From UHGV virus genome UHGV-0097031: a stretch of 10,543 nucleotides of DNA. The stretch is one strand, 5' to 3'. The stretch is from a virus. Of the stretch, positions 1,240-9,042 are shown piece by piece. The notes below the pieces were generated by a model, which did no database searches, was not told the origin of the DNA, and was given only the letters and a program-made list of their open reading frames with translations. Positions within the stretch are counted from its first letter, which is position 1. Each line of letters starts with the position of its first letter. The translations under genes were made by a program, and so were the position numbers.

Positions 1240-1632
1240 ATGGAGCATATCAGCAGCGCAGAAATTGCGGATATCATGATTAGGGCTGACTGCTATCTGA
1301 CAGTCACCGAAATCACCACTCTAGCTAAAGAAAAATATCCTCACCTTCATGTTTCACGAGTAAGTGTAACCAACATCATTCGGCATTTTGTGCGGTCAAG
1401 CCGAGCTATTTGTGAGCTTGATGATCGTGTTTACCCACGGAAATACTGGTTGCATGGCCTGAACGGATATCAGTTCAAGGTGCGCGGGCGCACGCCTGAA
1501 TACGGTAGCTTACTGGTTAAAAACTGTAGCAGGAAATCAGTCGAACAGGCGCGAAAAGAGCAACGAGAGCTGGTGGACATGGCGAATAAGCTGTGGAATG
1601 CCGCCGTTAAAAAGCGTGGTGTTGCTTTATGA
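1240..1632 (+). CDS. Hypothetical protein; positional candidate for a late-gene regulator (Lpa-like position upstream of pacA)
   Basis: 130-aa ORF; GGGGGA (1231-1236) just upstream of ATG 1240; its stop overlaps the downstream start (ATGA at 1629-1632). In P1 the gene before pacA is lpa (from memory); no sequence-level confirmation. Confidence 0.5.
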   Translation: MEHISSAEIADIMIRADCYLTVTEITTLAKEKYPHLHVSRVSVTNIIRHFVRSSRAICELDDRVYPRKYWLHGLNGYQFKVRGRTPEYGSLLVKNCSRKSVEQARKEQRELVDMANKLWNAAVKKRGVAL

Positions 1633-2993
1633 GTCTGGTTAATTGGGAGGAGCACCGCGCCCGCTTTATAGCGTTGCGTGAAGAAAAAGGGATCACTGTA
1701 AAGGAATACTGTGAGGAGCATGGCCTTAGCTTCAATACAGCCAGAAAGCATCTCAATATGAAAAAAAATGAGGTGCGGTCGCAGGTAAAGACAACAAAAA
1801 AAAGCACCAAATCACCTGAAAAAAAACGGGCGGGAAGAGCAACAAAAAAGCTGGAAGAGGGTGCAGAAAAAACAAAATTTACAGAAATTGACAATTCGCA
1901 GGGTGCAGGTTCTTTCCGAAGTATGCCAAGAAAGAAAACTTCGGATCATGAAAGTAATGCCAATAATAACAATGAGATAAAAGAATCTGTCAGGAGATCA
2001 TTGCGCGAAAAAATGGCGAAAATGATCCCCGAAGAAGATAAAAGCGCCCCAAAAATTGAGGGATCTTCAGCAATGATCCCTGGCGGTGCTGTGCAGCGTG
2101 CCACATTGCCCACTACGAATGTGGCTCGCGATATGATGAAGAACGGCGCAGAAGAACACCTGCGGTTAGCAATTCAAATGGCGCAAGAGCGCGCACTTCA
2201 GTATCAAAGCATTGTTGATCAGGAGGCCGAACGTCTACAGGCGGAAATAGACGCCTTGGGCGATAAAGAGCCAGAAGGAATGCACCCTGGGCAGCGCCTT
2301 CTCGGTCTAATCAGTGACGCGGCCTACTACATGAATGATTTTATCAGTAGGTTGGCAGCTATATATCAGTCCGAACAAAAGCTGCGACAGGGGGATGAAA
2401 AGCTTCGTCAGAGCGCTCGCCAGCAAGCATTCAAAGAGGCTGAGGCCAGAGAAAAACTCGAATTAGCACGCCTACAGGCCGAACAGCGTGGCAAAGAGAT
2501 TGAATATCGCATTGGCGCTGACGCACGCGCAGCCAGAGTTATCGCCGCCGCTATACGTATGCGTGAGCGCGAGGAACTGGATGATATCGGTGTTGCTGAA
2601 TACATCGAGCGCCAGGGGGTCAGCGTCCCGGCTATCCTCGCGGCGCGCGCGGCGAAAGCTATCACTCTTCTCGAACCACCTGTTTCTGACGTCAATGATG
2701 TTGATGATGAACAGCTGGACAAAGAGGCAAGGGAGTTTGCAACGCTTCAGGCTAACCATCCGCAATGGCTGGCAGAGCGCCGGGCGGATGTGGCAACCAT
2801 TGTTGAAGAATTGGGGTGCGGAGATTACGACCGCAATGGCGAGCGTAAAGCTGGAGAATTCGAGGCCAACGACGAAGAGCTGGATATTGACCCTTCGGCA
2901 ACGGCTGAAATTTACGGTGATTATGATGCATCTGATGCAGGGTATGACGCCGGAGATGATGATATCGCGATAGAACCGCCGGAGGATGATTAA
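1629..2993 (+). CDS. pacA: Terminase small subunit, PacA-like
   Basis: 454-aa ORF directly before and overlapping the large terminase gene (TAATG at 2991-2995). N-terminus (WEEHRARFIALREEKGITVKEYCEEHGLSFNTARKHL) looks like the HTH of small terminase subunits; Lys-rich linker, coiled-coil-like middle and strongly acidic C-terminal tail. Confidence 0.65.
   Translation: MSLVNWEEHRARFIALREEKGITVKEYCEEHGLSFNTARKHLNMKKNEVRSQVKTTKKSTKSPEKKRAGRATKKLEEGAEKTKFTEIDNSQGAGSFRSMPRKKTSDHESNANNNNEIKESVRRSLREKMAKMIPEEDKSAPKIEGSSAMIPGGAVQRATLPTTNVARDMMKNGAEEHLRLAIQMAQERALQYQSIVDQEAERLQAEIDALGDKEPEGMHPGQRLLGLISDAAYYMNDFISRLAAIYQSEQKLRQGDEKLRQSARQQAFKEAEAREKLELARLQAEQRGKEIEYRIGADARAARVIAAAIRMREREELDDIGVAEYIERQGVSVPAILAARAAKAITLLEPPVSDVNDVDDEQLDKEAREFATLQANHPQWLAERRADVATIVEELGCGDYDRNGERKAGEFEANDEELDIDPSATAEIYGDYDASDAGYDAGDDDIAIEPPEDD
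1943..2079. other. Candidate pac (packaging initiation) site: cluster of GATC-containing hexamers inside pacA
   Basis: Five GATC hexamers in 137 bp: GGATCA (1943-1948) and AGATCA (1995-2000) on the left, TGATCC (2023-2028), GGATCT (2061-2066) and TGATCC (2074-2079) on the right, arranged roughly as mirror images; AATGATCCC occurs twice (2021-2029, 2072-2080). P1 pac lies inside pacA and is built from Dam-methylatable TGATCA/G hexamers flanking the cut site (from memory). Confidence 0.3.
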
Positions 2994-4480
2994 TGGCTGG
3001 AGGGCGCAAGATTAAATGCGTCACCAGCGATCCACGCTGGCGCGATATGGTAATCAAATACCGCTACAACTTTACCCAGGCTGTTGTCGATATTTTTGGG
3101 ATGTTCCCCTCCCACCAGCAGCAGCAGATCATTCAGTCCGTGCAGGAAACGGGGAGTAGGACGACCGTCACGTCCGGACACGGAACGGGGAAGTCGTCCC
3201 TTACCGCGATGTTGCTGTTGATTTTCATGATCCTGTTCCCCGATGCCCGTGTCATCATTGTTGCTAACAAGATAGGCCAGGTAAAAACAGGCGTATTCAA
3301 ATACGTTAAACAGTATTGGGCGAATGTAGTTAAGCGTCATGGGTGGTTGCAGACCTATTTTGTCCTCTCTGACACCATGTTTTATGAGCGCTCCCGTAAG
3401 GGGATTTGGGAAGTTCTCTGCAAAGGTTATCGACTCGGCAACGAAGAAGCGCTGGCGGGTGAACACGCGGCACATTTGCTTCTAATTCTGGATGAAGCAT
3501 CTGGTATATCTGATAAGGCGATCGGCGTAATGACCGGTGCTCTTACTGAAGAAGATAACCGGATGTTGATGCTATCCCAGCCAACAAGGCCAAGTGGTTA
3601 TTTCTACGATTCGCACCATTCTCAAGCAAAAACCCCAGACAACCCGAAAGGGATCTGGACAGCAATTGTTCTTAACTCGGAAGAATCACCGTTCGTCACA
3701 CCACAATTCATCAAGCAGAAGCTTCTGGAATATGGCGGGCGCGATTCTATTGAGTACATGGTCAAGGTGCTTGGTCAGTTCCCACGAGAAATTAACGGCT
3801 ATTTGCTTGGTCGTGATGAATGCGATCGCGCTGCTCGCCGCAAGGTGTTGTTGGAGAAAAACTGGGGATGGGTGGCAACGGCTGACGTTGGTAATGGGCG
3901 AGATAAGTCGGTCCTCAACATCTGCAAGGTATCTGGTCACAGGGATAAGCGGCGCGTTGTTAACTTTAAGGTAATGGAGATGCCTGGCACTATGGACCCA
4001 TTGGCCTTTGCTGACTTCATATATAACGAATGTACGCCGGAAAAATACCCGAATATAACAATCGCGGTTGATGCTGATGGTTTTGGTTCTGATACGTGTG
4101 CGCAGTTGGTGCGTCGTGGTGCGAACCCGGTACGTATTCGGTGGGGAAAACCCATGTTTGCGAACAAAGACAGGGAGCGATTTGTTAATCAGCGTGCCTA
4201 CGCAAATATTATGGCGCGAGATGCCATAAAGTCAGGGCGTATGCGGATAGACAGTGACCCTAAAACGGCAGAGCAAGCGTCAAAAATCCCCTTTTTACTG
4301 AATGAAGAAGGGAAAATGGCGATGATGCGCAAAGAGCACATGCGGCAAAAGCTAAACATCAAATCGCCTGACCGATGGGATACCTACTGCTTCACTATGC
4401 TGGTGGACTATGTGCCTGCTAATGAAGATATTGGTGCCGAAATGGCAACTTTCCGAGATCAGGTTCTGGTGGATATATAA
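2993..4480 (+). CDS. pacB: Terminase large subunit, PacB-like (ATPase plus nuclease)
   Basis: 495-aa ORF; GGAGGA (2981-2986) 6 nt before ATG. P-loop TSGHGTGKSS, Walker B LLLILDEASGI, Asp-rich C-terminal half (e.g. VDADGFGSD) consistent with the terminase nuclease domain; size and position match P1 PacB (from memory). Confidence 0.85.
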   Translation: MAGGRKIKCVTSDPRWRDMVIKYRYNFTQAVVDIFGMFPSHQQQQIIQSVQETGSRTTVTSGHGTGKSSLTAMLLLIFMILFPDARVIIVANKIGQVKTGVFKYVKQYWANVVKRHGWLQTYFVLSDTMFYERSRKGIWEVLCKGYRLGNEEALAGEHAAHLLLILDEASGISDKAIGVMTGALTEEDNRMLMLSQPTRPSGYFYDSHHSQAKTPDNPKGIWTAIVLNSEESPFVTPQFIKQKLLEYGGRDSIEYMVKVLGQFPREINGYLLGRDECDRAARRKVLLEKNWGWVATADVGNGRDKSVLNICKVSGHRDKRRVVNFKVMEMPGTMDPLAFADFIYNECTPEKYPNITIAVDADGFGSDTCAQLVRRGANPVRIRWGKPMFANKDRERFVNQRAYANIMARDAIKSGRMRIDSDPKTAEQASKIPFLLNEEGKMAMMRKEHMRQKLNIKSPDRWDTYCFTMLVDYVPANEDIGAEMATFRDQVLVDI

Positions 4481-4507: not shown

Positions 4508-5545
4508 TTACCAGAGCTTCGCGGCGTACTGCGTTTGGGGGAATGTGTATCCGTAACGTTCTTCGATTGCTTTGCCGTATTTTTTACGAGCTTCATTCAG
4601 TTTTATGCCGGTCAGGTCGTCTCCAGAGGCCATCATTACGTCTAACAATTCCAGATCCATTTTATCCAGCCTTGCCATTGCTTCACGTGATGTACGTATC
4701 TTACGCTCAATGATATGGCGAATAGCCGGATCGGCATCCTCCAGCATCTTAGCGGATTTCTGCTTAAGGCTTTCATTGCGAATATCGATGTTCCTTAAGA
4801 TGTACGACTTCGCAACGTAGCTTGGCTGGTGTTTTTCCAGGTCACGAACACGATATAAGTTAAAATCGCCGAGAAGGCTGCAAGGTACCGATTCGACGCC
4901 AGAATAAATTGTAATGCTCCGGCGCTCACCAACATTATTGACAACGGGGATCGTTGTCTTCGGTAGTCTTGCGAAAACCAATGCGCCATGTGCGCCAACT
5001 CTAAAGCGAGAAAGGGCATTGCTGCCTTCGATGTTTGTTGTCAGCACAACATCTGTATATGCCTCTTTACGCGCCCGGTAGATCTCGCCTTCAGGCTCAG
5101 CTTCAAAGAAGCGCTGTTCTTCTTCAAGAGCACCTACGATTTGAGAAAAAACCCTATTTTTCAGGCTTTTCTTTATGATTTTGTCGTATTTTTTGAGCAA
5201 TTGTTCACGTGTAAATGTACGTGTTGTTGTAGCGCTTTGCACAACAACATGCGTGCTTTGATTGGTGTCCTCAATGATGAATGGGATCGGAGAATATACA
5301 GACTCAACAATGTTCGACGCTTTGCCGTCGGCATCGCGGCACATGTCAACGAAGGCTTTCCATTCAGCAAGACATTTTTCAGCTTCTTCTAATATGTTTT
5401 GGTCATGCGTTAATGCAACATGGCGGAATTCCTCGCCAGCATAACTGGTATCATGGAAAACAGAGTTTGCGACCACCAGCTCTTTCCACCGTTCAGCGGT
5501 TTGCAGGAACCGTTTGTACTCTTTCTCGATCGACTTCTTACTCAT
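4508..5545 (-). CDS. Hypothetical 345-aa protein in the immunity-region position (between pacB and lox-cre); candidate immunity repressor or accessory gene
   Basis: Longest ORF in this interval; AGGA 5 nt upstream of its ATG (minus strand); own AT-rich upstream region with paired operator-like inverted repeats; convergent with pacB and divergent from cre, as in the P1 immC region. I could not recognise any conserved domain by eye. Confidence 0.7.
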   Translation of the reverse strand: MSKKSIEKEYKRFLQTAERWKELVVANSVFHDTSYAGEEFRHVALTHDQNILEEAEKCLAEWKAFVDMCRDADGKASNIVESVYSPIPFIIEDTNQSTHVVVQSATTTRTFTREQLLKKYDKIIKKSLKNRVFSQIVGALEEEQRFFEAEPEGEIYRARKEAYTDVVLTTNIEGSNALSRFRVGAHGALVFARLPKTTIPVVNNVGERRSITIYSGVESVPCSLLGDFNLYRVRDLEKHQPSYVAKSYILRNIDIRNESLKQKSAKMLEDADPAIRHIIERKIRTSREAMARLDKMDLELLDVMMASGDDLTGIKLNEARKKYGKAIEERYGYTFPQTQYAAKLW

Positions 5546-5662: not shown

Positions 5663-5754
5663 GTATAAACCACGCTTCGCAAATTAAAGACCATGAAGGC
5701 AACGTGTTACTGGTCAGAATCAATCTGTGATGGATTAAAAAAAATCGCCATTTT

Positions 5755-5788
5755 ATAACTTTAAATAATTGGCATTATTTAAAGTTAG
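5755..5788. other. lox-like recombination site (13-bp inverted arms, 8-bp spacer)
   Basis: ATAACTTTAAATA - ATTGGCAT - TATTTAAAGTTAG; the arms are inverted repeats of each other at 12 of 13 positions, and the outer ATAACTT is identical to the outer 7 bp of the loxP arms (loxP: ATAACTTCGTATA). Lies 152 bp upstream of the Cre-family gene. Confidence 0.65.
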
Positions 5789-5796
5789 GCTATAAT
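5769..5796 (+). promoter_or_regulatory. Candidate sigma70 promoter reading toward cre, overlapping the lox spacer and right arm
   Basis: -35 TTGGCA (5769-5774), 16-bp spacer, -10 TATAAT (5791-5796); a TGATCA Dam-type hexamer at 5807-5812 lies just downstream. Confidence 0.4.
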
Positions 5797-5939
5797 TATG
5801 GGTAGATGATCAGTATTGACATCACTGAAAATACGTGCCTCGAATCAAAGGCTTGAATCTTGAAAATTAACTTATAGCTACCCTGTCATTTTTATATTTT
5901 TCGCGTAGCGTCATCTGTATATAGAGGTTAAATAGTTTC

Positions 5940-6968
5940 ATGAGTGAATTAATTATCTCTGGCAGCTCCGGTGGTTTTCTGCGCAACATTGGCAAAGAGT
6001 ACCAGGAGGCCGCAGAAAACTTTATGCGGTTCATGAATGACCAGGGGGCTTACGCGCCGAATACTTTGCGCGATCTCCGGTTAGTGTTTCACTCCTGGGC
6101 GAGATGGTGTCACGCTCGCCAGCTCGCCTGGTTCCCGATCTCACCAGAGATGGCCCGCGAGTATTTTCTTCAGCTGCATGATGCTGATCTGGCTTCGACC
6201 ACCATTGATAAGCACTACGCCATGCTTAACATGCTGCTTTCGCATTGTGGCCTTCCGCCACTTTCGGATGATAAAAGTGTTTCTCTGGCTATGCGGCGCA
6301 TCCGGCGTGAAGCGGCAACTGAAAAAGGCGAACGAACAGGCCAGGCTATACCGCTGCGGTGGGACGATCTGAAACTGCTCGACGTCCTGTTGTCCAGGTC
6401 AGAACGGCTGGTGGACCTGCGCAACCGGGCTTTTCTCTTTGTTGCATACAATACGCTGATGCGTATGTCGGAAATCTCGCGTATTCGTGTAGGAGATCTG
6501 GATCAAACAGGTGACACTGTCACGCTACATATTTCACACACGAAGACAATAACGACCGCCGCCGGGCTTGATAAGGTGCTTTCCCGTCGCACTACCGCTG
6601 TGCTGAATGACTGGCTGGATGTTTCCGGGCTTCGCGAACATCCTGACGCAGTGCTGTTCCCGCCGATACACCGTAGCAATAAGGCCAGGATCACGACAAC
6701 GCCCCTTACTGCACCTGCAATGGAGAAAATATTCAGCGACGCCTGGGTGTTGCTGAATAAAAGAGATGCTACGCCAAACAAAGGAAGATACCGGACGTGG
6801 ACCGGGCATAGTGCACGCGTCGGGGCCGCTATTGATATGGCTGAAAAGCAGGTGTCTATGGTGGAGATCATGCAGGAAGGAACCTGGAAGAAACCGGAAA
6901 CACTTATGCGGTATCTTCGCCGTGGCGGCGTGTCTGTGGGGGCTAATAGCCGCCTGATGGATTCGTAA
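5940..6968 (+). CDS. cre: Cre-family tyrosine site-specific recombinase
   Basis: 342-aa ORF that aligns by eye along its whole length with P1 Cre (343 aa): SWARWC / SWAAWC, WFP, LNML, SVSLAMRRIRRE / AVSLVMRRIRKE, AYNTLMRMSEISRIRV / AYNTLLRIAEIARIRV, HTKT / RTKT, WTGHSARVGAAIDMA / WSGHSARVGAARDMA, EIMQEGTW / EIMQAGGW, MRYLR / MNYIR. All catalytic positions (Arg, Lys, His-x-x-Arg, Trp, Tyr) are conserved. Confidence 0.9.
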   Translation: MSELIISGSSGGFLRNIGKEYQEAAENFMRFMNDQGAYAPNTLRDLRLVFHSWARWCHARQLAWFPISPEMAREYFLQLHDADLASTTIDKHYAMLNMLLSHCGLPPLSDDKSVSLAMRRIRREAATEKGERTGQAIPLRWDDLKLLDVLLSRSERLVDLRNRAFLFVAYNTLMRMSEISRIRVGDLDQTGDTVTLHISHTKTITTAAGLDKVLSRRTTAVLNDWLDVSGLREHPDAVLFPPIHRSNKARITTTPLTAPAMEKIFSDAWVLLNKRDATPNKGRYRTWTGHSARVGAAIDMAEKQVSMVEIMQEGTWKKPETLMRYLRRGGVSVGANSRLMDS

Positions 6969-8364: not shown

Positions 8365-9042
8365 ATGAATAACAAGGCAACGAAAGAGCTTTTTAAGCTC
8401 CTTCCCAAATACAAAGCTCACAAAAACGTTAGTGCATCGAAAATCAAAAATGTTGTTATTTTCGGAGTAACTGATACCCCACTTTGGGGCAGCATCGAAC
8501 TCGTTGAACCTAAAGGGGCAACAGTTTGTGTTGACGCAATGTTTTTACAAAAACACCGACCAAAAACTGGCGGGTATCTGATCGTTTATGAAAACGGTTA
8601 TCTGTTCTATGCCCCGGAGAAACCATTTGAGGAACGCTATGGCCTGGTTAACGACGCCTCCAAAAATGGAACCACGGTCATCATTACGGATGACAACGGC
8701 GCGATGATTAATCTTACCGGGAGCGTAACTATTTCTGCTGGTGGCATCACCACCCAGCAAGAAGAAATCGACCTTGAAGCAGCCGACTTTTCTGACGCGC
8801 TGATGTGGCTGAAGGATGGCAAGAAAGTTGCTCGACGCGGGTGGAACGGCGAAAACCAATTCTGCTGGCTGGTTCCTGAAGGACAGTACCCGGCACGAAT
8901 GGAAGCCATTAAGGGATATTTTCCCGGCGACCTCGTTCCGTATGGTGCTTATTTCGCCTTAAAAAATGCACAAGGTGTAGTTGTTCCGTGGGTGCCTTCA
9001 GTTGGCGACCTGCTGGCCTGTGACTGGTTTGTTGTGGAGTGA
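8365..9042 (+). CDS. Two-part protein: unknown N-terminal region (~140 aa) fused to a C-terminal DUF2829 (Tad2-family) domain
   Basis: 225-aa ORF. C-terminal ~85 aa (DFSDALMWLKDGKKVARRGWNGENQFCWLVPEG...PYGAYFALKNAQGVVVPWVPSVGDLLACDWFVVE) matches the DUF2829 pattern I recall (F-x-x-A-L-x-x-L-K-x-G-K-K-V-x-R-x-G-W-N-G ... P-W-x-x-S-x-x-D-L-L-A-x-D-W). N-terminal part unrecognised. Confidence 0.7.
   Translation: MNNKATKELFKLLPKYKAHKNVSASKIKNVVIFGVTDTPLWGSIELVEPKGATVCVDAMFLQKHRPKTGGYLIVYENGYLFYAPEKPFEERYGLVNDASKNGTTVIITDDNGAMINLTGSVTISAGGITTQQEEIDLEAADFSDALMWLKDGKKVARRGWNGENQFCWLVPEGQYPARMEAIKGYFPGDLVPYGAYFALKNAQGVVVPWVPSVGDLLACDWFVVE

Follow-up and report, generated by a model that had tools for sequence, protein, structure and literature searches.

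The analyzed DNA, a stretch of 10,543 nucleotides from the UHGV virus genome UHGV-0097031 (henceforth called the window), carries a short, almost symmetrical site between the phage repressor gene c1 and the gene of a Cre-like tyrosine recombinase, dre. The features are listed in Table 1. Their order, i.e., lpa-pacA-pacB-c1-rox-dre-orf-orf-dut, is that of Escherichia phage D6, which the window matched at 96.6–97.2% DNA identity over the shared parts in a comparison with phage records. As this identity is about 97% and not 100%, the window represents another D6-like plasmid prophage and not D6 itself. No identical record was present in the phage, plasmid, or E. coli collections, where the best match reached 97.8%. 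At least 80% of the window is covered by 99 PLSDB plasmids, mostly of Escherichia with some of Salmonella and Shigella, which are D6-like plasmid prophages of about 90 kb, and likewise by 91 of 5,426 complete E. coli genomes; 246 of the 256 matching places lie on plasmids. Judged by these matches, a D6-like plasmid prophage from E. coli/Salmonella is the source of the window. The c1 gene differs from that of D6 at four nucleotides and at no amino acid.

Table 1. Position, strand, and basis of assignment of the features in the window
Feature	Position	Strand	Basis
lpa	1240..1632		Pfam BPP1_LPA, E = 1e-56
pacA, packaging enzyme gene	1629..2993	+	match to D6 annotation
pacB, packaging enzyme gene	2993..4480	+	match to D6 annotation
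c1, phage repressor gene, left neighbor of rox as in D6	4508..5545	-	corresponds to AY753669 c1
Site in the loxP-type 34-bp frame (13-8-13)	5755..5788	.	frame of the preliminary description
rox site, 32 bp, published orientation TAACTTTAAATAATGCCAATTATTTAAAGTTA	5756..5787	-	exact match to published rox and AY753669
Left 14-bp inverted repeat of rox, TAACTTTAAATAAT, one Dre-binding half-site	5756..5769	.	100% complementary to 5774-5787
Asymmetric 4-bp core, TGGC read towards dre; sets site direction	5770..5773	.	
Right 14-bp inverted repeat of rox, ATTATTTAAAGTTA	5774..5787	.	complementary to left repeat
Putative sigma-70 promoter-like site	5769..5796	+	11/12 consensus positions (promoter scan)
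dre, Cre-like tyrosine recombinase Dre, 342 aa	5940..6968	+	342/342 identical to D6 Dre

Further differences from D6 and P1 were seen in the flanking genes. The pacB product has 495 aa in the window vs. 502 aa in D6 (1509 nt in AY753669), and a P1-type pac hexamer cluster was not recognized in pacA, where a single TGATCA/TGATCG hexamer was found at 2216. On the plus strand, positions 8365–9042 encode a 225-aa protein with a C-terminal Tad2-like domain (Thoeris anti-defence 2, DUF2829; Pfam E = 2e-22). Its D6 counterpart, orf114, is shorter with 146 aa, and its annotation notes a similarity to the C-terminal half of an SJ46 protein. The Tad2-like gene is thus fuller in the window than in D6.

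The letters at 5755–5788 read ATAACTTTAAATA-ATTGGCAT-TATTTAAAGTTAG. In this 13-8-13 frame, 12 of the 13 arm positions are symmetrical, the sole mismatch being the outermost pair (A at 5755 vs. G at 5788). Removal of this pair leaves a perfect 14-4-14 palindrome over the inner 32 bases (5756–5787), whose arms are 100% complementary and whose core, TGGC, differs from its own reverse complement. A perfect 14-nt inverted repeat around an asymmetric 4-nt core is therefore the best description of the symmetry. No other perfect inverted repeat of this size exists in the whole window; based on base composition, about 4e-5 such repeats would be expected by chance per window, and 200 first-order Markov simulations produced none. 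A second copy of rox was not found in the window, where the only other match had three mismatches (i.e., chance level), and further half-site copies likewise reached only chance-level matches. The preliminary description had reported a canonical 13-8-13 layout with an arm symmetry of 12 of 13, outer ATAACTT bases as in loxP, and a spacer unlike that of loxP, all of which hold when the letters are read, with ATTGGCAT as the spacer. Its contrast of the inner arm (TAAATA against CGTATA) was correct for arm positions 8–10, where CGT is replaced by TAA, but went too far for the last three bases, ATA, which are the same as in loxP (see also PMC4957104).

The published wild-type rox sequence, 5'-TAACTTTAAATAATGCCAATTATTTAAAGTTA-3' (PMC4777119), occurs once in the window as an exact reverse complement at 5756. 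Positions 5756–5787 are furthermore identical to positions 4909–4940 of AY753669 (phage D6), where they are annotated as "region of crossover (rox) site for Dre recombinase." The usual description of rox is that of 14-bp inverted repeats with a 4-bp spacer (PMC12331466; PMC4777119), and the site has exactly this architecture, with two perfect 14-bp repeats on either side of a 4-bp asymmetric core; the literature also continues to use the 13-8-13 frame (PMC4957104). In position, too, the site agrees with rox, as it lies between c1 (4508–5545, minus strand) and dre (5940–6968, plus strand) in the layout of AY753669. Every sequence-level test of rox was passed by the site and every test of Dre by the protein, and nothing found in the analysis spoke against this identity. 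As a matter of sequence, the identity of 5756–5787 as rox is settled.

The start of dre lies 152 bp downstream of rox. Its product is identical to D6 Dre at all 342 positions, contains the Pfam domain Phage_integrase (PF00589; E = 5e-17, above the curated cut-off), and has the complete catalytic set of a tyrosine recombinase (R175, K202, H290, R293, W316, and Y325), of which all but K202 are the five positions listed in PMC4777119. In a sequence search of solved structures, the closest entries were those of Cre (E = 5e-69); the search returned only Cre and engineered variants, and no solved structure of Dre. Identity between Dre and Cre was about 39%. Compared with dre of D6 (locus L001, 5093–6121), 38 nucleotides differ, 34 at third and four at first codon positions, and all 38 differences are synonymous. 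Together, the dre and c1 comparisons indicate strong purifying selection on both the Dre and the c1 protein, as read from the nucleotide differences. A side observation concerns the plasmid that best matches the rox-dre segment (99.4%; L101, CP042620.1, 37256–48676), in which dre is split into three frame-shifted pieces and no gene is annotated; these frameshifts probably reflect an error of sequencing or assembly rather than a genuine pseudogene.

Conservation of the site was determined at several distances from D6. The c1-dre intergenic region (394 bp) differs from that of D6 at 17 positions, none of them within 5749–5796. Selection is visible in this comparison, with dre changes that are all synonymous and a stretch at 5749–5796 that is unchanged despite the 17 differences elsewhere in the intergenic region. 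Viral contigs were scanned for both rox arms with any 4-bp core, which matched 23 contigs, 20 of them including dre. In all of the 20 dre-carrying contigs, rox lies 152–153 bp upstream of dre, and in 18 the core is TGGC in the same orientation; the natural variants were TAGC and GGGG. Rox occupies the same distance upstream of dre in plasmids with a Dre of 90–94% identity. In an alignment of 21 distinct upstream regions (Dre 70–100% identical), positions 5756–5763 and 5775–5787 were invariant, and invariant runs of at least six bases comprised both rox arms, the hexamer TATAAT at 5791–5796, and blocks near the start of dre. Sequence upstream of rox showed no conservation in the more distant members. 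The invariant blocks in front of dre were CCTGTCA (5882–5888), TTTTTC (5897–5902), CGTAGC (5904–5909), and TATAGA (5920–5925), and the lineage whose Dre is 70% identical has kept them as well; they may function as a second promoter, an operator, or a leader element.

The window, D6, and L090 have A at base 5755, the unpaired outer position of the 34-bp frame; five more distant aligned relatives (L083, L087, and L103–L105) have C there, and their arms are symmetrical over 13 of 13 positions. Several relatives carry natural spacer or arm variants. In L083 (3706–3737), identical arms enclose the spacer ATTAGCAT, and the neighboring recombinase is only 70% identical to Dre; in L090 (12405–12436), the spacer is ATGGGGAT with a Dre of 99.4% identity. 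The E. coli plasmid NZ_CP026578.2 (L105), an IncFIB conjugative plasmid and not a D6-like prophage, has the spacer ATTGGAGT and a Dre of 89.8% identity, and the plasmid L104 has a single arm change (TAGATA); in both, the site is located 152 bp upstream of the recombinase gene. Such variants could be natural heterospecific rox sites; for the GGGG core, an error in the assembly is another possibility.

A scan with one genome per species yielded 74 further loci (L004–L077) with Dre relatives of 41–47% identity from Pantoea, Rahnella, Mixta, Erwinia, Chimaeribacter, and others. A lox-like 13-8-13 site was present upstream of the recombinase gene in 49 of the 74, 47 times at a distance of about 150–370 bp and twice at approximately 950 bp. 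Arm positions 8–10 differ among the lineages (e.g., TTA, TCA, TCG, TTT). At five loci (L066, L012, L028, L040, and L052), the inner nine arm bases, CTTCGTATA, match loxP in combination with other spacers, and at L066 nearly all 13 arm bases do. Many also have a GATCC-N-GATCC pattern and a -10-like GGTATCAT about 20 nt past the site, an arrangement reminiscent of the Dam-site-rich region annotated upstream of P1 cre. The preliminary description would have been refuted by a lack of site conservation beside the cre homologs of related elements; the opposite was seen in the viral contigs (20/20), the plasmids with Dre of 90–94% identity, and the more distant relatives (49/74).

The site overlaps a near-consensus sigma-70 promoter-like sequence on the plus strand. 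The putative promoter reads towards dre and consists of a -35 element TTGGCA (5769–5774), which covers the rox core, a 16-bp gap, and a -10 element TATAAT (5791–5796), which begins 3 bp past the right arm. In the 21 distinct relatives, this TATAAT is invariant and the flanking bases vary. The scan of a 700-bp region returned two sites vs. a mean of 1.6 in shuffled sequences, for which reason the consensus match taken alone says little. A minus-strand candidate (ATGTCA/CATAAT, 5822–5795, 9/12 matches) was rejected as unconserved, its -10 element being changed in D6 and other relatives. A search of the literature on promoter activity or autoregulation at lox or rox sites, which did not extend to the original 2004 description, found nothing relevant.

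It is conceivable, though we would give it less than even weight, that rox also serves as the operator of dre's own promoter and that a real promoter at this place is repressed by Dre. In such an arrangement, Dre bound to rox would block RNA polymerase at the overlapping promoter, so that the recombinase would set its own level, tied to the occupancy of rox. A stronger version, in which the palindrome is mainly a promoter and operator of dre and recombination is secondary or additional, appears rather doubtful. It draws on the 11/12 match that overlaps the site and points at dre, on the invariance of the TATAAT hexamer next to the right arm, and on the annotated cre promoters of P1, which are clear of loxP, so that the overlap would be specific to the D6 type. 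Set against this, the -35 element is not kept in the natural spacer variants (TTAGCA, TTGGAG, and TGGGGA), the promoter scan barely exceeded its shuffled background, and the 32-bp site alone is recombined by Dre in heterologous hosts (PMC4777119; PMC12331466). Because of this last observation, recombination is certainly a function of the site. An additional promoter role is compatible with the reading of the locus as rox and Dre and does not compete with it.

The identity of the site and protein with Dre/rox also bears on the novelty of the pair. Dre was first isolated from phage D6 (PMC12331466; PMC4777119), and the original description of Dre/rox is attributed by PMC4777119 to Sauer & McDermott 2004. 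Starting from a search for a 13-8-13 site beside a Cre-like gene, Karimova et al. re-found Dre/rox in two E. coli strains (PMC4957104), a logic that is the same as that of the preliminary description. The latter had proposed a functional lox-type site that forms, with a divergent Cre homolog, a distinct cognate pair. This proposal is supported by the sequences, as the site is rox base for base and its neighbor encodes exactly Dre; the novelty that it implied is not, since the pair is already catalogued as Dre/rox of phage D6. The comparison with catalogued lox variants and Cre homologs that had been suggested as a check gave exact matches to the known rox and Dre, and the observation is therefore a rediscovery of something already known. 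A new lox variant belonging to a previously undescribed recombinase/site pair would be suggested by the three differences from loxP in each arm, the different spacer, and a recombinase only about 39% identical to Cre, but is refuted by the exact matches to a protein and a site that are annotated in GenBank, described in several papers, and already recovered, with the same approach, from E. coli strains (PMC4957104), leaving it a negligible probability. An AT-rich palindrome that arose by chance, or a hairpin that terminates transcription between c1 and dre, is just as improbable: the RNA folds as a 14-bp hairpin (-13.5 kcal/mol, z = -2.8), as that of any palindrome would, but chance is ruled out by the expectation given above, the exact match to a characterized site, and the conservation across diverged relatives, and a terminator by the missing T-run after the hairpin, which the terminator scan does not flag.

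The site is thus almost certainly rox, the target of Dre, and the window contains the rox-dre module of a D6-like plasmid prophage. Recombination of rox by Dre (PMC4777119; PMC4957104; PMC12331466) has been reported for the identical 32-bp site and the identical protein, and Dre and Cre do not cross-react on each other's sites (PMC12331466; PMC4777119). Mutation of the bases beside the 4-bp core (positions 2 and 7 in the 8-bp frame) abolishes compatibility with wild-type rox, and mutagenesis suggests a functional crossover region about as long as that of loxP (PMC4777119), which makes 13-8-13 a defensible functional frame; according to the same paper, the cleavage sites of Dre on rox have not been directly mapped. 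By the established mechanism of Cre/loxP, reported in the literature for Dre on this very 32-bp sequence, each inverted repeat is bound by one Dre monomer, and two occupied rox sites synapse to form a tetramer. Cleavage by Tyr325 and strand exchange then take place on one pair of strands and subsequently on the other, via a Holliday intermediate in the central region. The asymmetric core sets the direction of rox, and excision, inversion, or integration accordingly depends on the arrangement of the two sites.

In phage P1, Cre/lox circularizes incoming, terminally redundant DNA and resolves plasmid dimers. By analogy, the rox-dre module would circularize the incoming DNA of the phage and resolve dimers of its prophage, which would provide for stable segregation of the low-copy prophage.

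As a discovery, this result carries little weight, the pair having long been known: the phrase "distinct cognate recombinase/site pair" is right, but describes a system known since 2004. In mouse genetics and microbial engineering, Dre/rox is routinely used alongside Cre/loxP, and a real recombination site of this kind was recognizable from the raw sequence alone in the preliminary description. In natural D6-like prophages, Dre and rox stay the same while drift is seen at the surrounding silent sites. The natural spacer and arm variants and the possible promoter could be of interest to engineers of Dre/rox and to users of rox in bacteria, in which rox with its native flank may carry promoter activity and drive unwanted transcription.

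Among known systems, phage D6 (AY753669, MF356679) is the closest. It has the identical 32-bp site, including the seven bases before and the nine bases after it (5749–5796), the same Dre protein, the same placement of rox between c1 and dre, the same 152-bp spacing, and the same order of flanking genes. It differs in the surrounding DNA, which is about 97% identical and includes the 38 synonymous changes in dre and the 17 intergenic ones described above.

The loxP/Cre system of P1 is of the same kind. Over the 34-bp alignment, 21–22 of 34 bases are common to both sites, among them ATAACTT at the outer and ATA at the inner end of each arm; Cre is homologous to Dre (about 39% identity) with the same catalytic residues, and loxP, too, belongs to a plasmid prophage, in which the c1 immunity region lies to one side of it and the recombinase gene to the other. 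The site in the window is not loxP itself, for which the arms ATAACTTCGTATA and the spacer ATGTATGC are required; it has three mismatches in each arm and another spacer. Arm positions 8–10 are CGT in loxP and TAA in rox, and the asymmetric core comprises 8 bp in loxP but only 4 bp in rox. In P1, furthermore, cre follows loxP at a distance of about 420 bp, the gene cra lying in between, and none of the annotated cre promoters (104–129, 283–312, and 400–424) overlaps loxP, the nearest starting 87 bp beyond the lox arm.

The third system is that of Panto and pox from Pantoea sp. aB. Panto is 52% identical to Dre, and pox differs from rox at one base of the inverted repeat and has four of the eight spacer bases in common with it (PMC4957104). 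Dre and Panto each recombine both rox and pox, but rox does not recombine with pox, as the spacers are incompatible (PMC4957104). Pox-like sites, e.g., CTAACTTTATATA-ATGGGACT-TATATAAAGTTAG, were found in the genome scan upstream of many of the recombinases with 41–47% identity to Dre, in Pantoea, Rahnella, Mixta, and Erwinia. They are followed by the -10-like GGTATCAT at about 20 nt, often together with paired GATC motifs, whereas TATAAT of the window stands 3 nt past the rox arm.
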